A DNA stretch of 64,000 bases from Calditrichia bacterium (GCA_963777955.1 CAVZSQ010000026.1:26457-90456); one strand, 5' to 3'; shown: positions 6,932 to 64,000, numbered from the stretch's first letter. Made by a program: numbers and translations. Notes: generated by a model from the sequence alone, not told the origin.

Positions 6932-8954
6932 ATGGCCAGAATAGGTGTTTTTGTCTGTCATTGCGGAGAGAATATCGGTGCAACCGTGGATTGTGCACGT
7001 GTAGCCGAACTGGCCGCCCGCATACCGGGCGTTACTTACAGTGTTGATTATAAATACATGTGCTCAGATCCCGGACAGAATATGATCCGTGATGCCATCA
7101 GGGATAAAAAACTGACCGGGGTAGTAGTTGCGGCCTGCTCACCGCGCATGCATGAACCAACTTTCCGGCGGGCCTGTGCCGAGAGCGGATTAAATCCTTT
7201 CATGTGCGAGATGGCCAACCTGCGCGAGCACTGCTCCTGGGTGCATGAGAAAACCGAGGAAACCACCCGCAAAGCACTGGATCTGGTGCGAATACTAGTT
7301 GAAAAAGTAAAACGTAATGCCCCCTTATTTCCGATAAAAGTTCCGGTGACCAAAACGGCACTGGTGCTGGGCGGTGGTATTGCCGGGATACAGGCCAGTC
7401 TGGATATCGCTAATGCCGGTCATAAGGTCATCCTGGTTGAAAAAGATCCCTCCATCGGCGGGCACATGTCGCAACTATCCGAAACCTTTCCTACCCTGGA
7501 CTGTTCGCAGTGTATCCTGACTCCGCGTATGGTGGAGGTAGCGCAACATCCTAATATTACGCTGTATACATATTCAGAATTGGAAAGTGTTGATGGATTC
7601 ATTGGGAATTTTAAAGTGAAGATCCGCAAAAAAGCCCGCAGTCTCGACGAAAAACTGTGTACGGGTTGCGGAATATGCACGCAGAAATGTCCCATCAAAA
7701 AATTACCCAGTGAATTCAATGCCGGTCTGGGTATGCGCACGGCGATCTATGTTCCTTTTCCCCAGGCAGTTCCCAACAAACCAGTTATCGACCGGGACCG
7801 AGTGCACTTTTTACCGCAAAGGATCCTGCAAACTGTGCGCGAAGGTTTGTCCGACCCAGGCGATCCGTTTTGACCAGCAGGATGAGATCATCGAAGCAAA
7901 TGTCGGTGCGATCGTAGCCGCGACAGGATTTGATACGGTAGGTACCGATTTCTTTCCAGAATACGGATATGGCGAATATACCGATGTTATTACGGGATTA
8001 CAATTCGAACGGCTGGCTTCGGCCTCCGGTCCAACCACCGGAGAAATTCGCCGGCCTTCGGATGGTAAGGTGGCAGAAACCGTAGTTTTTATTGCCTGCG
8101 CCGGTTCACGTGATCCGGCCAAAGGGATTGATTACTGTTCAAAGATTTGCTGCATGTACACTGCCAAGCATGCGATGTTGTATAAACATAAAGTCCATCA
8201 CGGCCAGGCTTATGTATTTTACATGGATATCCGGGCGGGTGGAAAAATGTACGAGGAATTTGTTCGCCGGGCTATTGAAGAAGACGGGGTAATGTATGTG
8301 CGCGGGCGGGTATCGCGCATCTACAAAAAAAATGGAAAACTGGTGGTAAAAGGGGTAGATACCTTGCTTAATTCCAAACCAATGGAAATCGAAGCAGACC
8401 TGGTGGTACTGGCCACGGCCATGGTAGCGAACAAGGATGCAGAATCCCTGGCTCAGAAACTGCACATCAGTTATGATCCATATCATTTCTTTGCCGAAGC
8501 ACATCCCAAATTACGCCCGGTTGAAACCAATACCGCCGGTATTTTCCTGGCCGGAGCCTGCCAGGCACCGCGTGATATTCCTGAAACGGTAGCGCAAGCT
8601 TCGGGTGCCGCAGCCAAGACGGCAGCACTGTTTTCACAGGATGAACTTACCCGTGAACCGCTTATTGCCGTGGTCAATCGTACAGCTGCTCCTCTTTTTT
8701 CTTCCTGCGCGGGATGCTTTTTATGCCAGCAGGCTTGCCCATACCAGGCAATTGAAAAAGAGGAAATTAAAACCCGGGATGGCCGCCTGATCAAAACTGT
8801 GGCCAGGATAAATCCTGGTTTGTGTCAGGGTTGCGGCACCTGTGTGGCTGTCTGCCGTTCAAAATCTATAGATTTGCAGGGATATACCCACCGGCAAATT
8901 TATGCGGAAGTTATGTCCTTGTGGAACTGGAGTACTGAAAATGTCAACGTTTGA
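6932..8954 (+). CDS. hdrA: heterodisulfide reductase subunit A (FAD/Fe-S), apparent +1 frameshift near 7790-7800
   Basis: GGAGG sits about 10 nt upstream of the ATG at 6932. HdrA features: GVFVCHCGENIG, the FAD fold VLGGGIAGIQASLDIANAGHKVILVEK, and several CxxCxxCxxxCP motifs. PVIDRD in one frame continues as ECTFYRKGSCKLCAKVCPTQAI in the next, pointing to one extra base near 7799. Confidence 0.88.
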
Positions 8955-12081: not shown

Positions 12082-12660
12082 ATGAAGAGAGCGGTATCTA
12101 AAGATAAAATTGTTTCTTTTGATGACGAAAAACTGATCGCGGTCGATGAGCAGGATAACATCGTTGCTTATAGAACCAGGATCGAATGTCATCAGGGTGA
12201 AGGTATTCTGCACCGGGCTTTTTCGATTTTCATTTTCAATGGTCAACAGGAACTCCTCCTGCAGAAACGCAGCGCTCAGAAACTGCTCTGGCCGGATTTC
12301 TGGTCCAACAGTTGTTGCAGTCATCCCCGTCAGGGTGAGAAAACGGAAATTGCTGCCAGACGCCGGCTGAAAGAAGAATTGGGAATTGAAGCCGGGCTGA
12401 TTTATCTCTATACCTTTCAGTATCATGCCCGCTTTGGGTCCATCGGATCTGAGCGGGAATTATGCGCAGTATATGTTGGTACAAGTGATGAACCTGTCCG
12501 TTTTAATCAGAATGAGATCTCTGTCTGCAAATATCTTGATATTGATTCCCTGACTGCTGATTTAGTGACTAATCCTGATAGATATACACCCTGGTTCCAG
12601 CTGGAATGGCAGCGGTTGATGCGGGAATACAGGGATAAAATAACTGCCATGTTTATCTAA
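12082..12660 (+). CDS. idi: isopentenyl-diphosphate delta-isomerase, type 1 (Nudix)
   Basis: HRAFSIFIFN...LLLQKRS..K..WP..WSNSCCSHP..GE...A..RRL.EELGI matches the Idi type-1 pattern. Confidence 0.85.
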   Translation: MKRAVSKDKIVSFDDEKLIAVDEQDNIVAYRTRIECHQGEGILHRAFSIFIFNGQQELLLQKRSAQKLLWPDFWSNSCCSHPRQGEKTEIAARRRLKEELGIEAGLIYLYTFQYHARFGSIGSERELCAVYVGTSDEPVRFNQNEISVCKYLDIDSLTADLVTNPDRYTPWFQLEWQRLMREYRDKITAMFI

Positions 12661-12809: not shown

Positions 12810-13880
12810 GTCCCTGGCGGGACTACACGATATTGGTGTGATCGTGTATCTATAGATATATTGTCCCTGACGGGACAATCGCAAATATGCGGAGCCAATT
12901 TTGTTATAATTATTTTGTCTTTGGCGGGACTACCGATATGTGTGTGATCGTGTATCTATAAATATTTTGTCCCTGGCGGGACAATCGCAAATATGCGGAG
13001 TCAATTTTATTATAATTATTTTGTCCCTGACGGGACTACCGATATGTGTGTGATCGTGTATCTATAGATATATTGTCCCTGGCGGGACAATCGCAAATAT
13101 GCGGAGTCAATTTTATTATAATTATTTTGTCCCTGGCGGGACAATCGCAAATATGCGGAGTCAATTTTATTATAATTATTTTGTCCCTGGCGGGACAATC
13201 ACAAATATGCGGATCAAGTTTATCTATAGATATTTTGTCCCTGGCGGGACAATCGCAAATATGCGGAGCCAATTTTATTATAATTATTTATCCCTGACGG
13301 GACTACACATATATGGGTGATCGTGTATCTATAGATATCTTGTCCCTGGCGGGACAATCGCAAATATGCGGAGTCAATTTTATTATAATTATTTTGTCCC
13401 TGACGGGACTACACGATATTGGTGTGATCGTGTATCTATAGATATATTGTCCCTGACGGGACAATCGCATATATGAACTGAGCATTTGTCATAATTATTT
13501 TCTCCCTGGCGGGATGCTGATATATGGGAATCGTGCATCTATAAATATAATGTCCCTGGCGGGACAATCGCAAATATATGCGGAGCCAATTTTGTTATAA
13601 TTATTTTGTCCCTGACGGGACTACACGATATTGTGTGTGATCATATATCTATAAATATATTGTCCCTGGCGGGACAATCGCATATATGCGGAGTCAATTT
13701 TGTTATAATTATTTTGTCCCTGACGGGACTACACATATTGAGTGTGATCGTGTATCTATAGATATCTTGTCCCTGACGGGACATCGCATATATGCGGAGC
13801 CATTGTTATAATATATTGCCCTGGCGGGACTACCGATATTGGGGAACGTGTATCTATAAATATGTTGTCCCTGACGGGAC
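12810..13880. repeat. tandem hairpin-repeat array, block 1: 21 copies of GTCCCTGRCGGGAC with two alternating linker families (about 106-bp dimer unit)
   Basis: Palindrome starts: 12810, 12863, 12917, 12969, 13023, 13075, 13129, 13183, 13237, 13290, 13342, 13396, 13449, 13502, 13552, 13608, 13662, 13716, 13769, 13818, 13867. Linker A is about TACCGATATGTGTGTGATCGTGTATCTATAGATATATT. Linker B is about AATCGCAAATATGCGGAGTCAATTTTATTATAATTATTTT. Confidence 0.95.
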
Positions 13881-14022
13881 AATAATCCGTAATAAATAAT
13901 AGATCTTTAATATTCATCTTATAGATTAAAATGTAGTTCAAGGTACGGATTTATACTATGCAATCACCCATAATATTGTCCCATAAGGATCGAATATTAT
14001 GAAATTGTTAGCACAGCATGTA

Positions 14023-14506
14023 GTCCCTTCAGGGACGACATATCTATAGCAATCGCCCATCCTCACAATCGCTAGTCCCGCCAGGGACGTAATATTTATG
14101 ACAATCGCCAATCATCCCAGAATCTTCAGTCCCGCAGGGACGACATATCTATAGCAATCGCTCATCCCCACAATCGCTAGTCCCGCCAGGGACGTAATAT
14201 TTATGACAATCGCCAATCACCTAGAATCTTCAGTCCCGCAGGGACGACATATCTATAGCAATCGCTCATCCCCACAATTGCCAGTCCCGCCAGGGACGTA
14301 ATATTTATGACAATCGCCAATCACCCAGAATCTTCAGTCCCGCAGGGACGACATATCTATAGCAATCGCCCATCCTCACAATCGCTAGTCCCGCCAGGGA
14401 CGTAATATTTATGACAATCGCCAATCACCCAGAATCTTCAGTCCCGTCAGGGACGACATATCTATAGCAATCGCCCATCCTCACAATCGCTAGTCCCGCC
14501 AGGGAC
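14023..14506. repeat. tandem hairpin-repeat array, block 2: 10 copies of the same stem with inverted loop polarity (GTCCCGCCAGGGAC / GTCCCGCAGGGAC), about 105-bp dimer unit
   Basis: Palindrome starts: 14023, 14075, 14129, 14180, 14233, 14284, 14337, 14388, 14441, 14493. The linkers GTAATATTTATGACAATCGCCAATCACCCAGAATCTTCA and GACATATCTATAGCAATCGCCCATCCTCACAATCGCTA alternate almost perfectly. Confidence 0.95.
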
Positions 14507-14629
14507 GTGATATCCCTGATAATATTAAAAAAATTTGGATAATTAGAATCGGGTCGTTAAAATTTCTTATTCCTGTCCGAAGATGGGTCAGATCCACATC
14601 AGTATTTAAATTTGAAGGGAGAATGAGAC

Positions 14630-16306
14630 ATGCTAAAATCAAAAAAATACGCAATAATAATTCTAACTCTTGCTACACTTTTGAGCGCATGTTTTACTGC
14701 AGATCAACCGCGCACAATTCAGCGCAGCGATGTGATTTCTGCCGAAAATATTATAGGGCTGAATTTTACCGATGCCGAGCGGGATTCTCTGCTGAAAGAT
14801 TTACAGGATAACCGCCGCCAGGCCTATTCTAAGATCCACGAAATAGTGATACCGAACCAGATCCCCCCGGCGCTCACATTTAATCCGATCCCGCTGGGAT
14901 TCCAACCCAAAAATCAGCAGAACATTTTAAAGTTGAGCCCCCCGCAGCAACTGACTGTGCCCGAAAACAGGGAAGAGTTGTGCTTTTATACTGTACGTGA
15001 TCTGGGTGAACTGCTGCGTACCCGCAAGATTACATCGGTTGAATTGACGCACTTATACTTAAACCGCTTAAAAAAATATGATCCGCAATTGCATTGTGTC
15101 ATCTCTCTGACGGAAGAGCTGGCTTTGCAGGAAGCACAGGCTGCCGATCAGGAAATCGCAGCCGGTAATTACCGTGGTCCGTTGCATGGTATCCCCTATG
15201 GCGCTAAAGATCTGCTGGCGGTCAAAAAATATAAAACGACCTGGGGTGCCATGCCTTATAAAGATCAGGTTATCGACCGTGATGCAACTGTTATTAAAAA
15301 ATTACATGCCGCCGGCGCAGTGCTGGTGGCTAAACTTACCCTGGGCGCACTGGCCTGGGGGGACGTGTGGTACGGAGGTAAGACCCGAAATCCCTGGGAT
15401 CCACAGGAAGGTTCCAGTGGATCGTCAGCAGGATCAGCCGCGGCAACTGCGGCCGGACTGGTTCCTTTCGCTATTGGTACCGAAACCTGGGGCTCAATTG
15501 TGTCCCCTTCGACACGCTGTGGTACCAGCGGTCTGCGTCCCACTTACGGGCGGGTCAGCAGAACCGGAGCCATGGCCCTGAGTTGGTCCATGGATAAAAT
15601 CGGTCCCATCTGCCGGTCGGTCGAAGACTGTGCCATAATATTTAATACAATATATGGACCGGATAATGAAGACCAGTCAGTCTATGACTTTCCTTACAGT
15701 TATGATGCCAATCTGGATCCCACCCGATTAAAAGTCGGGTATCTGAAATCTGCTTTTGAGGAAAAATATGACCAGCAGCGATTGGATCAGGAAACTCTGG
15801 ATATAATGCAGCAGAAGTTGAACGTACAGTTAATTCCCATCACACTGCCAGATCTCCCGATTCAGTCCCTGGCCATTATCTTAAATGCCGAGGCCGCTGC
15901 CGCATTTGACGATTTAACCCGTTCCAACCGCGATGATTTAATGGTGCGGCAGGTGCGCGATGCCTGGCCCAACGTTTTCCGTGCTTCACGATTCATCCCG
16001 GCAGTTGAATATATTCAGGCAAACCGTATTCGCTTTATGCTGATCCAGGAGATGCGTAAATTGTTTGAACAGATTGATATCTATATCGCACCTTCCTTTG
16101 CCGAGGATAATCTGCTGCTGACCAATCTTAGCGGACATCCTTGTGTGGTGCTGCCGAATGGTTTTGATCAGAAGGGCAACCCAACCAGTATCAGTATCAT
16201 CGGTAATTTATTTGATGAGGGCAGATTACTGGCTTTTGCCAATGCCTACCAGCAGGCCACCTCATTTCATAAACAATATCCGCCACAATTTAAAGTTTCT
16301 GATTAA
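14630..16306 (+). CDS. amidase-signature family enzyme, predicted lipoprotein
   Basis: Lipobox LLSAC after an N-terminal hydrophobic segment. Amidase signature GSSGSSAGSAAATAAGLVPFAIGTETWGSI..P and a KD(L/N) catalytic Lys region. Confidence 0.85.
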   Translation: MLKSKKYAIIILTLATLLSACFTADQPRTIQRSDVISAENIIGLNFTDAERDSLLKDLQDNRRQAYSKIHEIVIPNQIPPALTFNPIPLGFQPKNQQNILKLSPPQQLTVPENREELCFYTVRDLGELLRTRKITSVELTHLYLNRLKKYDPQLHCVISLTEELALQEAQAADQEIAAGNYRGPLHGIPYGAKDLLAVKKYKTTWGAMPYKDQVIDRDATVIKKLHAAGAVLVAKLTLGALAWGDVWYGGKTRNPWDPQEGSSGSSAGSAAATAAGLVPFAIGTETWGSIVSPSTRCGTSGLRPTYGRVSRTGAMALSWSMDKIGPICRSVEDCAIIFNTIYGPDNEDQSVYDFPYSYDANLDPTRLKVGYLKSAFEEKYDQQRLDQETLDIMQQKLNVQLIPITLPDLPIQSLAIILNAEAAAAFDDLTRSNRDDLMVRQVRDAWPNVFRASRFIPAVEYIQANRIRFMLIQEMRKLFEQIDIYIAPSFAEDNLLLTNLSGHPCVVLPNGFDQKGNPTSISIIGNLFDEGRLLAFANAYQQATSFHKQYPPQFKVSD

Positions 16307-19613: not shown

Positions 19614-20881
19614 TCAATTTTTCTTTGATAATTACCCGTACCTGTTTAATCCGGCGTCTGAATACTTTTTCAATCACAAATTCGTAACCATTAAAAAGAA
19701 CCGATTGTTTCTCCTGCGGAACCGATCCAAACTGGCCATATAAAAATCCGGCCAGCGTGGTTACACCCTCTTCAGCCGGTAAATCGAGTTTTAATATATC
19801 TTTGATCTCGCTCAGGTCCATGGAACCATCAATGATAATTTCAGTTTCGTTCAAACGCTGATACAACGGCAGTTCCAGATCATGTTCATCCTGGATTTCA
19901 CCGAAAATTTCTTCCATTATGTCTTCCAGCGTAACTAATCCGGAAGTACCTCCGTACTCATCGACCACAATCGCCATATGAATTTTCTGACTTTGAAATT
20001 CCCGTAATAATTCATCGATCTTCTTCTGTCCGGGCACGAAATAGGCCGGACGAGCCAGTTTTTCCAGGTTGATCCCGCTGCCGGCCTGCTGATCAAGATA
20101 GACCAGCAGATCTTTGACGAACAGTATACCCACGATATTATCCACTTTTTCTTTATATACCGGAATGCGGCTGTGCAGGTTCTTACGAATCAGATCTAAC
20201 AGCAGGTTGAATTCAATATCCAGAGGCACACAGACCATATCGATCCGTGGGACCATAATTTCCCGTACGGTGGTTTCGCCAAATTCGAAAATGGAGTGAA
20301 TCATCTCCTTCTCTTCTTTTTGCAGGGTCCCTTTTTCTTCGACAAAATCCAGCAGGGAACGTCAGCTCCTGATCGGATAAATGAAGTTTGTTCTTATGTA
20401 TTCTGAAAAGGGTGGTAAGCCATTGGGTCAGGGTATAGAAGATGCTGACCACGGGCAGAAACAGATAGTATACGAGAGTGAGCGGGAAGGCAAACCTGCG
20501 GGCCAGGTGTTTGGCATTTCTGACTGCGCCGATTTTAGGGACAATTTCAGAGAAGATCAGGATAACGAAAGTGACCACTATAACATTGATTAAAATACCA
20601 ATCTGCAGATCTATATTTAAATTCCGGCAGATATCCAGGGTCAGGATGGTGGCCAGAGATGCTGCTGCGATATTGACAATCGTATTACCGATTAAGATGG
20701 TAATCAGCAATTTTTTGGGGGAGGTCAGCAATTGGACGATATGCCGGCTCTGGAAATCGGTCTTGCTGCGCAGGCGTTCCAGATCTGTCGACGAAAGGGA
20801 AAAAAATGCCGTTTCACTGGCGGAAAAGAAAGCCGAGATGATCAATAACAGCAGGAATATGAATAAATATGCTACGTACAT
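19606..20881 (-). CDS. CorC/HlyC-family transporter-associated protein (DUF21-CBS-CorC_HlyC), apparent frameshift near 20355-20362
   Basis: The N-terminal DUF21 membrane part (ORF 20213-20881, ...LHLSDQELT) continues in another frame as SLLDFVEEKGTLQKEEKEMIHSIFEFGETTVREIMVPR, followed by the CBS pair and the CorC_HlyC domain (ORF 19606-20304). Confidence 0.85.
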
Positions 20882-20934: not shown

Positions 20935-21361
20935 TCAGGTATAAAATTTCCGGGCCAGTTTTAATAAGTGTTCTTCCTTTTTTTTCATAACTTTCCGGTC
21001 CTCAATTTGCAGATCTGAAAATCCGGCCAGATGCAGGCAGCCGTGTATGATCAGGCGGGAAATTTCATCCAGCAGGGTTACACCATAGGTACCGGCCTGA
21101 TCTCTGGTCTGTTCCAGGTTAATATATATTTCTCCTTCAATTTTTTTATCCTCGGCCAGATTGAAAGTCAACACGTCACCGGGAGAATCGTCCTGCAGAT
21201 AATCTTGATGCAGTTTTTGAAATTCTTTTGAGCTTATAAAAATGATATCGAGTGTTGAAATATTCAATTTTAATTGTGTGCAGACCCGGTTACTTAGTTT
21301 CTTGAAGTAGTGCCTGCGACTTTTTTAATTCGCCCTGCTCAGAGTGAATTTGGATTTTCAT
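20935..21361 (-). CDS. ybeY: rRNA maturation endoribonuclease YbeY, apparent frameshift near 21300-21325 (T6 run)
   Basis: Zinc motif HGCLHLAGF plus PGDVLTF. The N-terminus MKIQIHSEQGELKKS lies in the frame of ORF 21290-21475 and joins ...HYFKKLSNRVCTQLKLNISTLDIIF in the ybeY frame. Confidence 0.8.
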
Positions 21362-23649
21362 TATTTTGCGGTTTTGGCGTTGTTTCTTTTCTGCTTCTGA
21401 CCGTTTTTTCGGCAACGGTTTTGGGGTATTCCACCCGTTTATGATAGATCCCGGTGAGCACAGGAATGAAAGCATCGATAATCGCCTTCAGATCACGCAT
21501 GGTTAAATCGCTATCGTCCAATTCTCCTTCCAGGAATCTCTTTCTCGATAAGTTCTTCGGCCAGTTTCCGCAGCCGGTTAGGGGTGGGATTGGTCAAAGT
21601 CCGGGCAGCCGCTTCTACCGTATCGGCCAGCATGACAATGGCTGTTTCCTTGGAATGGGGCGAAGGACCGGGATAGCGATAATCATCCTCATGCAACTCG
21701 CTGCCTTCCTGGGTTTCCAGCGCTTTGTTATAAAAATAGGCCATTAAATTTTTACCATGATGTTCGGGGATGAAATTACGGATATCTTTGGGCAGTTTAT
21801 ATTTTTCAGCCAGTTCCAGGCCGGTTTTTACATGCGAGGCCAGGATCAACGCGCTCATATTAGGAGCCAGGGTTTTATGACGGTTTTCACCGGCCGGTTC
21901 ATTTTCGACGAAGTATTCCGGGCGGTCTATTTTACCGATATCATGATAATAACTGCCCACCCGGGCCAGCAATGGATTGGCATCCGTCGCTTTAGCAGCA
22001 GCTTCGGCCAGATTACCGATGATCACACTATGATGAAAAGTACCCGGTGCTTTCAATGATAATTCTTTCAGCAGGGGATGGTTTAAATCGGATAGTTCCA
22101 GCAAGGTAACATCTGTGGTAATATCAAACAGCCGTTCGAATGGTCCCAGTACCATATAAGTGATGATCGGTGAAAGAATTGCATTCGGCAGCATGAATAA
22201 AGCAAATTTTTTCAGGATTTCATCAAATTTTTCATAATTAAGAATACCCAGAGTTACCGCCATGAAACCATAAGCTATAATCAGATAAAAAATTGCTTTA
22301 AAAATCTGATTGCGGGTGCGGATCTCGGCCACCGAAAAGATAGCCACCAGGCCGACGAAGGAACTGAGCAGGATGAAGAAATAGTCAAATCCTACTATCC
22401 CGCCGAGCAGCAGGGCAATGATCACGGTACCCACGAAACCTATGGCCGGTTCGAATAGAATGCCCAGCAGCATCGAAGAAATTGTAGTCGGTAACACCAG
22501 CGCAGGCAGTCCCAGAGTATTAGGATTGACAATCAATGAGGCCAGCACTACCTGTAATAACAGCAGGATGGCCAGCAGCAATATTTTTTTATTATCATGG
22601 AGAATTTCCGGTCGATTAATGCGCAGATATAAAATAAAAATGAACAAGATTACGGTAATCAGCAGATAGCGGGAGAGTAAGGAAAGCAGGTCCTGGATAT
22701 TTCCGCTTTCGCTATACCTGGTTGCCGTAGCCTTTTCCAATGAATACAATTTCTGATATATGTTTTCGGTCACCCGTTCGTTGGCGTCAATAATCCTTTC
22801 GTTCTCATAAACGATATCTTTGGCAGTAGCGACGGCTGCCACCATGTCCCGCTGCCGTTGCTCGGTCAGAGTCTGGTTGAACAGCAGATTGGGGGTAAAG
22901 AATTGAGCCACAATTTTGCGCCACAGGCCGGCATTCTCCAATTTTAAAGGCAATACTTCAATAAATTGCTGCTTGACGGCAGAATCGATCAATAATTCCA
23001 GGGCTATATCTTCTTCGATGCCATCCTGCAAAACTGTAATCCTGGGTTGTGCAATGGCGTTCTTGGAGAGATCAATATAATTTTTTTGGTACAGACCGGA
23101 TAACGCTGCAGTCAGAATGGCCAGCAACTGTTTGTTATCACTTTTATAAACCTGATGGATCAGGGAATTTACTTCATCCGGTTCCAGATTAATACGCCAG
23201 ATGGCATACATTTTTTCTGATAAATTGAATAGTACCGAATCTGCTATGGGGCCAGCGGTACGCAGTGCCTGCTGATTGCGGGAATCCTTTTGCGGGTTAG
23301 CCAGCAGATCAAGTACTTCTCTGAGATTAGCAGTTTGTTTCTGCTGCACCTGCTGATTTTTATCGAATATTAATTGCACCTTGTCACGCGCTTGTTGACG
23401 TTCAATACGTATTTCTTCATCAGTTTTCAGCACAGAAAAGGTAAAAGGTGCAATAATTTTTTTATTTACGATGCTGCCGATACGGAGATCCGTATACTTG
23501 AATGAGCGGCCGGAGGGAAAAAATGCCGGAATCAGCAAAATAAGTATGAGCAAATATGCCAATTGCACAAGAAATTTGGACACAGTAAGAGAGCCGATTC
23601 TTGTCTTTAATATTTTATCAACAATATTTGAGTTTTTCGTTGCCATCAC
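21339..23649 (-). CDS. 7TM-receptor/HD-domain membrane phosphohydrolase (PgpH/YqfF family), apparent frameshift near 21520-21540
   Basis: Extracellular domain, then 7 TM helices, then an HD domain (HHSVIIGNLAE...GSYYHDIGK, PEHHG). ...ELIEKEI in the first frame continues as LEGELDDSDLTMRDLKAIIDAFIPVLTGIYHKRVEYP in ORF 21339-21521. Confidence 0.85.
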
Positions 23650-61362: not shown

Positions 61363-64000
61363 ATGAAAAAGATCTTTCTGCTCTTGTCATTAATCTTCGT
61401 TGCCAATTTGGCTGCTAAAGATGTAACGGGTAATCAGGAAGGTGTCTGGAAATTAACCGATTCCCCTGTACGAATTGTAGGGGATGTAACCATCCAGGCC
61501 GGTGATACTTTAACCATCGAGCCGGGCGTGATTGTCAATTTTAGCGGCGATGTCCCTCCCAACTGGTTGTCCATCTACAGGATAAATATTTACGGAACCC
61601 TGCTGGCCCGGGGTACCTTTGAAGATTCGATTATATTTAAACATGAAACCTCCGGCCGGCGGCACTCTTCCCTGGATATCCTGGATGCAACTACTGTTTC
61701 AGTATTTGAATATTGTCGTATACAGGACGGTGGACATGATAATGTTCAATCCAGAGGCGGGGCAATTTTCGTTCAAAACTCATCTCCACTTATCAAAAAC
61801 TGTACTTTTTATAATAATTATGGATTATGGGGCGGAGCTGTTTATCTGTTATATAGTTCGGCAGCAATAATTGAGTCAAATCTTTTTCTAAACAACCATG
61901 CGAGCAACCTGGGCGGGGCAGTCGGCTGTAATGCCTATGATAGTAGTTACAGTAATACTCCTATGATCAGGAATAATATATTTGTTTCAAACTCCGATAC
62001 AACCTATGGGGGTGGTGCTCTAAGTTTTTATACCCACATCAAGGCGAACGTGATAAATAATGTATTTTATAATAACCATGTTGCCACGGGCAGTGGAGGA
62101 GCAATACTGCTATACGAGCGTTATAATAATGTTAATGTTTCCAACTGTGTATTTTGGGGTAATACTGCCGGCAGCCCGGGCAGTCAAATTTATGTGGCGG
62201 GTACGGATACTTTGAATATCGATTATTCAAATATTGAAGGAGGAGCCACAGGTATCGCCGGAACCGGTTTGATCAATTACGGAAGTCACAATATAAATAA
62301 TGATCCCCTTTTTACCAATCCTGGCGGTAATGATTTTCAGTTTGAGGCCAATTCGCCTTTACTGGATGCGGGTACCAGCACTGCTGCACCGGCGACGGAT
62401 TTTTATGGTAATGCCCGGCCCTTTGACGGCGACCGGGATAATAGCGCAGAGTATGATATCGGTGCCTATGAATACCAGAATACCGCCCCACAGATTACAT
62501 CAACAGCGGTTTTGAATGCAACGGAAGATGTAGCTTACAGTTACCAGGTGGTGGCCAGCGACCCCGATTACGGGGATGATTTGACTTACTCATTACCCAC
62601 GGCACCGGCGTTTCTTACAATTAATCCGTCAACCGGTTTGATCTCCGGAACCCCGGCCAATGAAGATGTCGGTTCTCGACCCGTTATTGTGCGGGTTGTG
62701 GATTTAAACGATGCGCCAGCCACGCAGCCATATACCCTGACGATAACTAATGTCAATGATCCACCAGTGGTCGCTGATATTCCCAACCAAACGATTAATG
62801 AAGGTGCAACATTTACAACGATTAATCTGGACAATTATGTATCGGATGTTGATAATACTGGTGCCCAGATCGATTGGGGATATTCGGGAAATGTCAGTCT
62901 GATCGTAGATATCAATCCGTCTATGCGTAGAGCCACGATTTCCACACCGGACGCTAACTGGTTTGGAAATGAGACCATTACTTTTACGGCCACAGACCCG
63001 GGACTTTTGACCGATAATGATGCGGCCGCTTTTATAGTGAGATCGGTTAATGATGCCCCGGTGGCAGTTAATGATGCAGTAACGACAGATGAAGATACGC
63101 CGGTAGTTATAGATGTTTTAGACAACGATGGTGATGTTGATGGGACACTGATAGTTTCCACCGTAACTCCGACCGATCCACCACATGGTTCAGCCACGGT
63201 CAATCCTTCAACCGGAGTGATCACTTATTCGCCGGATGCTAATTATGGTGGTTCGGATTCATTCACCTACACGGTGCGTGATGACAGCAACGCCGTATCG
63301 AATGTAGCCACGGTAAATGTCACGGTGAACCCGGTCAACGATGCACCGGTAGTGACTGATATACTGAACCAGTCGGTAGCGGAGGGGAGTAGTTTTGCGA
63401 CGATTAATCTGGATGATCATGTGAGCGATGCCGAGACTGCCGACGCCGATATAATCTGGACCTACAGCGGGAATACTGATCTGACCGTGTCGATTGTGAA
63501 CCGGGTAGTTACAATTACTGCACCAAACGGGGAGTGGAACGGGAGTGAGACGATCACCTTCCGGGCTACCGATTTGGCAGGATCGTATGATACGGATGCT
63601 GCGATGTTCACAGTCACAATGTTAAGCGATGCACCGGTGGTTAGCGATATACCGAACCAGTCGATAGCGGAGGGGAGTAGTTTCACGGCAATTACCCTGG
63701 ACAATTATGTAAGCGATGTGGATAACAGTGATGCAGAAATGACCTGGAGTTACAGCGGGAATACGGATCTGACCGTTTCGATTGTTAACAGGGTGGCGAC
63801 GATATCTCCAGCGAACGGGGAATGGAACGGGAGCGAGACGATCACCTTCCGGGCCACAGATCCTGATAACTTATTCGATAGCGATGAAGCAACGTTTACG
63901 GTCACGGCGGTGAACGATGCGCCGGTGCTAACGGATATTCCGAACCAGATCGTGACAGAGGGGGGCGGTTTTGTCACGATCACCCTGGATAACTATGTGA
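61363..64000 (+). CDS. large secreted surface protein: beta-helix region + cadherin/Ig-like domains + 96-aa tandem repeats (3' end beyond the window)
   Basis: It is absent from the ORF track because it has no stop, but I read the frame open from ATG 61363 to the window end. Signal peptide MKKIFLLLSLIFVANLAA, G/N-rich beta-helix repeats, a LTYSL...INPSTGLISGTP cadherin-like module, VNDAVTTDEDTPVVIDVLDNDGDVDG, then repeats of NDAPVV.DIPNQ...EG..F..I.LD.YVSD. Confidence 0.8.
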   Translation, partial: MKKIFLLLSLIFVANLAAKDVTGNQEGVWKLTDSPVRIVGDVTIQAGDTLTIEPGVIVNFSGDVPPNWLSIYRINIYGTLLARGTFEDSIIFKHETSGRRHSSLDILDATTVSVFEYCRIQDGGHDNVQSRGGAIFVQNSSPLIKNCTFYNNYGLWGGAVYLLYSSAAIIESNLFLNNHASNLGGAVGCNAYDSSYSNTPMIRNNIFVSNSDTTYGGGALSFYTHIKANVINNVFYNNHVATGSGGAILLYERYNNVNVSNCVFWGNTAGSPGSQIYVAGTDTLNIDYSNIEGGATGIAGTGLINYGSHNINNDPLFTNPGGNDFQFEANSPLLDAGTSTAAPATDFYGNARPFDGDRDNSAEYDIGAYEYQNTAPQITSTAVLNATEDVAYSYQVVASDPDYGDDLTYSLPTAPAFLTINPSTGLISGTPANEDVGSRPVIVRVVDLNDAPATQPYTLTITNVNDPPVVADIPNQTINEGATFTTINLDNYVSDVDNTGAQIDWGYSGNVSLIVDINPSMRRATISTPDANWFGNETITFTATDPGLLTDNDAAAFIVRSVNDAPVAVNDAVTTDEDTPVVIDVLDNDGDVDGTLIVSTVTPTDPPHGSATVNPSTGVITYSPDANYGGSDSFTYTVRDDSNAVSNVATVNVTVNPVNDAPVVTDILNQSVAEGSSFATINLDDHVSDAETADADIIWTYSGNTDLTVSIVNRVVTITAPNGEWNGSETITFRATDLAGSYDTDAAMFTVTMLSDAPVVSDIPNQSIAEGSSFTAITLDNYVSDVDNSDAEMTWSYSGNTDLTVSIVNRVATISPANGEWNGSETITFRATDPDNLFDSDEATFTVTAVNDAPVLTDIPNQIVTEGGGFVTITLDNYV
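63337..64000 (+). repeat. in-frame 288-bp tandem repeats inside the surface-protein gene
   Basis: Units are 63337-63624, 63625-63912 and 63913 onward, roughly 80% identical by eye at the DNA level. A more diverged copy begins near 62755. Confidence 0.85.

Follow-up and report, generated by a model that had tools for sequence, protein, structure and literature searches.

The 64,000-nucleotide stretch of a Calditrichia bacterium genome that we analyzed (GCA_963777955.1, contig CAVZSQ010000026.1, positions 26457-90456; hereafter the window) carries, between a NUDIX hydrolase gene and an amidase gene, two blocks of a short hairpin in which GTCCC pairs with GGGAC around a loop of three or four nucleotides. 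The hairpins of the two blocks have opposite loop polarities, which we call R-type (block 1) and L-type (block 2, the feature under study). We read the locus as probably being a gene-less, tandemly expanded cluster of hairpins that resemble repetitive extragenic palindromes (REPs) and belong to the HUH Y1 (IS200-like) family of single-stranded DNA transposases. The features, numbered from the first nucleotide of the window, are as follows.

12082-12660, plus strand: NUDIX hydrolase gene, the upstream flank, outside the element; it marks the syntenic insertion site.
12810-13880, plus strand: block 1, 21 R-type hairpins (GTCCC-TGRC-GGGAC) with a period of ~53 nt, mostly in 106-bp dimers in which the inner hairpin and B-linker (TACACGATATTGGTGTGATCGTGTATCTATAGATATATT, which contains a stem of 7-8 bp) precede the outer hairpin and A-linker (AATCGCAAATATGCGGAGTCAATTTTATTATAATTATTTT).
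13881-13960, no strand: AT-rich unique spacer between the arrays, with no conserved counterpart in other R/L arrays.
13961-14022, plus strand: decayed L-type unit, CAATCACCCATAATATT + GTCCCATAAGGATC + GAATATTATGAAATTG.
14023-14506, plus strand: block 2, 10 L-type hairpins with loops GCCA, GCA, GTCA or TTCA in 4.7 dimers of 104 bp that run outer hairpin, GACATATCTATAGCAATCGC... linker, inner hairpin, GTAATATTTATGACAATCGCC... linker.
14507-14629, plus strand: right junction up to the amidase start, orthologous to the junction in a related contig (L123, below).
14630-16306, plus strand: amidase gene, the downstream flank, outside the element; it marks the syntenic insertion site.

Within the 64 kb, the exact GTCCC/GGGAC motif is confined to the array locus, where it occurs 24 times with a 4-nt loop and 3 times with a 3-nt loop against shuffle expectations of 0.01 and 0.03, respectively; allowing one mismatch adds a single site beyond the locus. 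The core is a 14-nt GTCCC-N3-4-GGGAC with a stem of only 5 bp, which extends to 8 bp in many block-1 units. Polarity is uniform in each block, with all 21 hairpins of block 1 pointing one way and all 10 of block 2 the opposite way. Seventeen of the block-1 hairpins are exact and four are degenerate. In block 2, where the first-pass annotation had counted ten hairpins with inverted GCCA loops alternating with a 3-nt GCA loop, seven of the ten have 4-nt loops (TTCA, GCCA five times, and GTCA) and the other three, at 14129, 14233, and 14337, have GCA; the start-to-start distance is 51-54 nt. The whole array lies in the NUDIX-amidase spacer, outside genes, and can be taken as non-coding because neither 104 nor 106 is a multiple of 3.

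Tandem Repeats Finder resolves block 2 into 4.7 copies of a 104-bp period with 96% matches, close to the ~4.5 near-identical dimers of ~105 bp described at first, and block 1 into a 106-bp period with 88% matches, along with a higher-order 320-bp period in the array. The mean pairwise identity between dimers is 0.949 in block 2 and 0.878 in block 1, consistent with the proposal that block 2 was recently amplified or homogenized. At 13075-13250, block 1 contains consecutive A-only monomers and a single A/B hybrid linker. Two block-2 dimers, once reverse-complemented, can be aligned to block 1 over ~175 nt, linkers included, and the local alignment score between the blocks is 62 in the inverted orientation vs 17 in the direct one. 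Since the alignment runs through both linkers, block 2 is an inverted, diverged copy of the whole block-1 unit and not of the hairpin alone, in agreement with the first-pass annotation, and the linker start that had been matched to the reverse complement of block 1, ACATATCTATAG, is found after the outer hairpins. Part of the ~140-bp AT-rich spacer drawn between the blocks (13881-14022) is the decayed L-type unit, whose hairpin gives a fuzzy match at 13978-13991 and whose first 17 positions (13961-13977) are tied by the repeat family to the block-2 linkers; the unique stretch is only ~80 bp. The short motif CAATCGC does occur in the same orientation in both blocks, with 9 copies in block 1 and 13 in block 2 (22 in total in the window, 12876-14490), always on the plus strand and with no GCGATTG. 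We considered it as a strand-specific cleavage mark and set the idea aside: the motif is not found in the orthologous cluster of L123 or in other lineages.

The family to which these hairpins belong was delineated with two scans, one of one-genome-per-species contigs for two hairpins 48-58 nt apart (at least 120 loci) and one of metagenomes for three hairpins in tandem. Because stem and gap were fixed in both, the resulting hairpin-selected loci (243 among the matches listed, the scope of all locus counts from these scans below) are biased in counts and spacing. The genome-scan loci come mostly from Bacteroidales, Planctomycetaceae, Ignavibacteria, and related metagenome-assembled genomes (MAGs). 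Many scanned loci hold a four-hairpin module composed of two L-type hairpins (loop GNNR) and two R-type hairpins (loop YNNC). The L-type reads GTCCC-GNNR-GGGAC followed by an ATATYGGTAGA or ATATTTATAG box, and the R-type is its reverse complement, a TCTACCRATAT or CTATARATAT box followed by GTCCC-YNNC-GGGAC. After the first L hairpin comes AAYATATYGGTAGAAA, after the second GTAATRT, and the outer R hairpin is preceded by TTCTACCAAYAT-NN. Where the stem varies beside the conserved box, both of its sides change together and pairing is kept (ATCCC/GGGAT, GCCCC/GGGGC, and GTGCC/GGCAC).

Complete units, found in many contigs of Bacteroidota, Ignavibacteria, and Planctomycetota, have two L-type hairpins upstream of a small Y1 gene and R-type hairpins downstream, ~53 nt apart. 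At two loci, L069 and L114, LL and RR pairs bracket a gene for a 162-aa product that matches Pfam Y1_Tnp (1e-28) and the NCBIfam IS200/IS605 model NF033573 (71.4 bits, cutoff 55); against the curated RayT model NF047646 it scores 31.6 bits with a cutoff of 80, which places it outside RAYT/TnpA_REP, and some JGI records name relatives of the protein "RayT". The closest solved structures to a profile of 14 Y1 proteins are the ISDra2 and IS608 TnpA enzymes, and the proteins carry the motifs DH[IVL]H, WQ, and Y[IV]xNQxxHH. A Y1 gene is present at 37 of the 243 hairpin-selected loci, in 36 of these with hairpins at most 300 bp away and often with arrays on both sides. In a small sample chosen from protein similarity alone, hairpins flank four of four Y1 genes with a spacing of 50-58 nt. 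Four of four exact Y1 proteins each occur in a single gene neighborhood across samples. Gene-less modules are more numerous than Y1 genes among the matches listed: six contigs of one Azobacteroides MAG hold modules without a Y1 gene, and a 160-kb contig has three separate hairpin loci with the gene at one. In 2.9 million viral contigs, the two-hairpin pattern matched just four times, and the family is thus not obviously phage-borne.

Some of these loci have features of their own. At L247 (1900-2700), the Y1 gene separates hsdM from hsdS in a type I restriction-modification operon, and a duplication of ~45 bp from the 3' end of hsdM flanks it on either side. In an Ignavibacteria MAG (L067, 6720-7566), the whole RR-spacer-LL module of ~240 bp is repeated in tandem at least four times, a mode of amplification that differs from the separate arm expansions of the window. 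At L069 (5300-5330), and also at L005, L092, L114, L070, and L245, the Y1 gene terminates (...PDGT stop) in GT(A/G)CCTGACGGCAC, a variant of the inner R hairpin, so that the right-end hairpin overlaps the coding sequence in that subgroup.

When the window is set against this family, block 2 shows the L-type loop polarity together with both L-type linker starts, GGGAC-GACATATCTATAGCAA (the TATAG version of ATATCGGTAGAAA) and GGGAC-GTAATATTTATG; the corresponding consensus forms, GGGAC-RACATATC(GG/TA)TAG and GGGAC-GTAATRT, match the two left-end (upstream) hairpins of Y1 genes. Block 1 combines the R-type polarity with a TATCTATAGATAT-NN-GTCCC box, as in the right-end (downstream) hairpins. The TATAG/TATAAATAT version of the box is common to Ignavibacteria, Kapaibacteria, and other MAGs, and it brackets a Y1 gene at two loci, L027 and L020. 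As judged from sequence, then, the hairpins of the array are of the same family as those that bracket the HUH Y1 gene, and the matching polarity and boxes identify block 1 as an R doublet amplified ~10-fold and block 2 as an L doublet amplified ~5-fold. We also looked at ATGACAATCGCC, which follows the inner L hairpin, as a possible remnant of the sequence around the Y1 start codon (ATGGCAAATACC), and dropped it, the similarity by eye being ~10/18.

Clusters with an R array followed by an L array recur. The large ones among the matches listed are L197 (14R+6L), L226 (15R+2L), L233 (13R+2L), and L126 (12R+2L), together with L162 (6R+8L), which adjoins a Y1 gene; the genome scan adds similar clusters at L035 and L038, and there are many smaller ones. 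Their linkers are unrelated to those of the window and often GC-rich, and their R-L spacers, ~23-330 nt in length, are unrelated in sequence. What is kept is the period of ~52-53 nt and the CTACC box. The cluster of the window, with 27 exact hairpins, is the largest among the matches listed; its kind is common.

Look-ups with the exact NUDIX and amidase proteins of the window gave no record, and homologues of the flanking proteins led us to three contigs syntenic with the window (L121, L122, and L123). In L121 and L122, whose amidases are 85-86% identical to that of the window, the NUDIX-amidase spacer is 342-372 bp long and contains zero hairpins. In L123 (amidase 76% identical), a pair of R-type hairpins and a set of three L-type ones, separated by a 45-nt spacer, stand in the same place and order as the arrays of the window. 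From the last L units to the amidase ATG, L123 and the window share 78% column identity (e.g., AATTTGGATAATTA.AAT...GTTAAAAT), and on the left side they are alignable through the first R doublet. The array of the window is therefore the expansion of a module at a site that holds a small module in a relative, and because the spacer of the closest relatives has no hairpins, the array is dispensable for the flanking genes. The simplest reading is that an old RR-LL(L) insertion was expanded later in the lineage of the window and was lost from, or never present in, the lineage of L121 and L122.

The same comparison bears on the reliability of the assembly. Compared with the orthologues in L121 and L123, three genes in the window are split between frames (6932-8951, 19615-20881, and 21342-23646), with frame switches near 7710-7810 in an HdrA-like gene, near 20291-20361 in a CNNM/CorC gene, and near 21541-21551 in a gene for a 7TM-HD receptor; these are either indel sequencing errors or pseudogenes. 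Such splits make the difference between 3-nt and 4-nt loops, a matter of single bases, less certain, and near-identical units in combination with likely indel errors make the exact copy number of the array units provisional. One could go further and suppose that the size and regularity of the array, of block 2 above all, are in part an artifact of assembly, through collapsed or expanded units and a wrong copy number: the block-2 dimers are 96-97% identical over 104 bp and hard for short reads, and three frame-shifted genes within 10 kb suggest indel errors. However, the flanks and junctions are orthologous to those of an independent assembly, arrays of 13-20 hairpins are present in several unrelated assemblies, and the units differ by scattered substitutions, as real copies would, and we consider this explanation quite unlikely.

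The position of the array, on one strand directly downstream of the NUDIX gene and upstream of the co-directional amidase gene, could suggest an element exapted to act on transcripts, its many GC-stem hairpins in read-through RNA serving as 3'-end stabilizers, attenuators, or insulators, a role that has been proposed for E. coli REPs and is compatible with an origin as transposase ends. REPs are reported to act as regulators in the 3' untranslated region in E. coli (10.64898/2026.03.23.713779). The block-1 dimer folds into three stems significantly better than shuffles (z = -4.2), and terminator-like sites, a hairpin plus T's, are enriched (13 observed vs 2.3 expected). Yet these calls simply reflect the repeat unit, whose 5-bp stems are weak and whose T tracts are poor; the block-2 dimers have no such extra stem structure and fold no better than shuffles; the closest relatives keep the gene pair without any hairpin; and the role would not require thirty copies. 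A transcript-level function of the array is, in our judgment, unlikely. The fold of the unique spacer (13881-13960) is not significant (z = -1.6). Separately, the B-linker of block 1 (13391-13496) includes an inverted repeat of 7-8 bp, TACACGAT...ATCGTGTA, as well as a perfect 12-bp palindrome, TATCTATAGATA.

The first-pass annotation had compared the two convergent blocks around an AT-rich core with replication, partition, or recombination sites, and had named related genomes with one block or none as an observation that would speak against such a site. This is the situation at the syntenic locus, with zero hairpins in L121 and L122 and only 2+3 in L123. A double-stranded protein-binding array, be it a centromere, an iteron origin, or a nucleoid-organizing site, with palindromes every ~5 helical turns around the AT-rich core, has in its favor the 52-54 bp period, which is near five helical turns, and the palindromic nature of the 14-bp core. 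In layout, the array bears a superficial likeness to tandem centromere repeats, for example the sopC repeats of the F plasmid. However, the cumulative GC skew climbs across the window and does not turn at 13-14.5 kb, DnaA-box-like sites are at chance (22 observed vs 19 expected), and the neighboring genes include no par, rep, or dnaA gene, the absence of adjacent replication or partition genes having been noted already at first pass. The spacer between the arrays is unconserved, the syntenic site of the closest relatives lacks the array, the same repeats lie at many loci per genome in other lineages, where they bracket a transposase gene, and the 53-nt period is already a trait of the two-hairpin transposase ends. 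We regard a binding array of this type as very improbable. A recombination site survives from the earlier proposal only in the sense of ends recognized by the HUH Y1 transposase family, not as a chromosomal site, and the cluster is best read as selfish or neutral repeat DNA and not as a replication or partition site.

The neighborhood is a housekeeping one, with Hdr/Mvh-like genes upstream and the genes for SelB, SelA, CorC, YbeY, and the 7TM-HD receptor downstream. The amidase has its best named relatives, with 65-67% identity, among Calditrichota MAG proteins, and its nearest matches (76-86%) are on metagenome contigs. The source organism is probably an uncultured member of the FCB group. 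Far from the array, a 288-bp tandem repeat (2.1 copies, 75%) is found at 63332-63948 within a large open reading frame that runs from 61339 past the end of the window; the frame encodes Big_9, cadherin-like, He_PIG, and beta-helix domains, and the repeat represents ordinary coding domain repeats.

Short hairpin repeats that are regularly interspaced also recall paired arrays, either CRISPR-like or of tandem small RNAs, whose transcription would start in the AT-rich region between them. Here the "spacers" are two alternating linkers throughout, the repeat core is just 14 nt, no cas domain was found in ten neighboring proteins, and promoter-like sites are not enriched (11 observed vs 10.7 expected). 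A scan of the window for tRNA and tmRNA found none, and at gathering threshold Rfam gave no relevant family in the whole window or in 20 related loci. Below threshold, the Rfam family Acido-Lenti-1 (RF01687) matches three hairpins partially on the minus strand, at 14129-14150, 14233-14254, and 14337-14358. These matches, which count weakly in favor of RNA arrays, cover model positions 24-45, that is, one hairpin plus UAUG, and score 18.3 bits vs a gathering score of 37, which none of the 20 related loci (0/20) reaches; we therefore reject membership in Acido-Lenti-1, and arrays of this kind are in our view scarcely credible. A kinship between the Acido-Lenti-1 motif and the hairpin family of the array is possible. 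Acido-Lenti-1 annotations, of unknown role, are recorded in Tannerella genomes (a 2026 preprint).

Under our preferred reading, an expanded cluster of Y1-associated hairpins, the history of the locus might have run as follows. An RR-spacer-LL(L) module would have been present in the common ancestor with the L123 lineage, seeded by a Y1 enzyme encoded elsewhere in the genome that would have acted through the hairpins in single-stranded DNA at the replication fork. Recognition of single-stranded hairpins is established for the TnpA enzymes of IS608 and ISDra2 and for E. coli TnpA_REP (PMC6006769 and PMC8266576). The arms would then have expanded individually as the 53/106-bp units underwent unequal recombination or replication slippage, as suggested by the A-only monomers, the A/B hybrid linker, the 320-bp period, and the pattern of identities, and block 2 would have grown or been homogenized most recently. 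No host function needs to be invoked, and if the NUDIX or amidase transcripts were affected, this would be secondary.

Several observations weigh against this reading. The window has no Y1 gene (tblastn of the Y1 protein against the 64 kb gave nothing better than E = 1), and the cognate enzyme in the source organism is thus something we infer, just as the action of this Y1 subgroup on its hairpins would follow by analogy with its characterized relatives. The hairpins form a single locus in 64 kb, far under the density of classical REPs, and within each block they run head-to-tail, unlike those of the alternating bacterial interspersed mosaic elements (BIMEs). The presence of CAATCGC on the same strand in both blocks is not explained by a simple history of inverted arms. 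Finally, the copy number of the near-identical units is that of the assembly.

That unrelated lineages share the R^n-L^m layout hints that reiteration of the arms may be driven by the enzyme. A broader proposal is that these loci represent a REPtron-like system that has gone unrecognized, in which subclass 1.2 Y1 enzymes with their own direct doublets of 5-bp stems ~53 nt apart occur across FCB and PVC phyla and in which the enzyme, not slippage alone, drives the R and L expansions; we offer this tentatively and think it somewhat doubtful. If it were true, enzyme-driven expansion would provide a tractable model of REP cluster growth. For annotation, the analysis removes a false lead (an origin, a centromere, or a CRISPR-like array) and supplies a usable signature, GTCCC-N4-GGGAC doublets ~53 nt apart with a CTACC/CTATA...ATAT box, which marks widespread non-coding repeats in Bacteroidota, Ignavibacteria, Calditrichota-like, and Planctomycetota genomes. 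It also ties a Y1 subgroup to a cognate repeat family able to reach arrays of 20-30 hairpins, and the orthologous clusters of 2+3 vs 21+10 hairpins are a natural before-and-after case for the growth of REP clusters. The interest of the locus is mainly for specialists in mobile DNA.

In comparison with known systems, the locus shows none of the features of an origin or centromere (skew inflection, initiator boxes, dnaA/rep/par genes, and syntenic conservation), and it differs from a CRISPR array, with repeats of ~23-50 nt, unique spacers, and cas genes nearby, in having two alternating linkers only. The IS200/IS605 insertion sequences (IS608 and ISDra2) are similar in that their Y1 HUH fold is the nearest in sequence and in their subterminal hairpins at both ends. 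In IS608, the left and right hairpins are on the same strand and in the same orientation. The ends described here are instead mutual reverse complements with at least two hairpins per end and no tnpB, and because the window lacks a transposase of its own, the locus is not a copy of an insertion sequence.

BIMEs consist of regularly spaced REPs in alternating orientation (PMC2817692), and neither block 1 nor block 2 is organized in this manner. In GTAG REPs, the stem has a conserved GTAG (or CGTC) tetranucleotide at its foot, and dimers are seldom arranged head-to-tail (PMC3733652); in most members of the present family, a GGTAG/CTACC box is located 6-10 nt from the stem, and in the window the box reads TATAG. 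Closer parallels can be drawn with the REPtrons of E. coli, Pseudomonas, and Stenotrophomonas, which combine REPs or BIMEs with TnpA_REP (RAYT) enzymes. By analogy, both would have short extragenic palindromes with GC stems and an HUH Y1 enzyme, a gene bracketed by its own repeats in inverted orientation (here seen in other genomes) and located in one fixed context per sequence (four of four exact proteins), and gene-less copies that are dispersed and tandemly reiterated with linker DNA. REP clusters in which dimers are tandemly reiterated together with flanking DNA have been described (PMC3733652). Unlike in REPtrons, the enzyme is class-1-like (IS200-like), with PDB matches to IS608 and ISDra2 and not to TnpA_REP, the stems are 5 bp, the ends are direct head-to-tail doublets ~53 nt apart, and density is low in the lineage of the window. 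The REPINs of Pseudomonas share the inverted pair of arms (RR-LL or LL-RR) as a nonautonomous unit and the persistence at orthologous sites; here, the arms are direct doublets that expand independently to 10-20 hairpins, and the enzyme is of a different Y1 class.

On motifs alone, the Y1 proteins match subclass 1.2 of TnpA_Y1, which is defined by DH[IV]H, WQ, and Y---Q--HH, lies near the IS200 transposases, and is low-copy (Quentin et al. 2018, PMC6006769). Besides the motif signature, they share with it a length of ~150-160 aa, an apparently low genomic copy number, and an occurrence in Bacteroidetes. The subclass has been reported as having neither insertion sequence properties nor REPs (PMC6006769), whereas the genes considered here are consistently bracketed by hairpin doublets that are also found as gene-less modules and long arrays. 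Bracketing by doublets of 5-bp stems would therefore add to the description of subclass 1.2 in the open-access literature.

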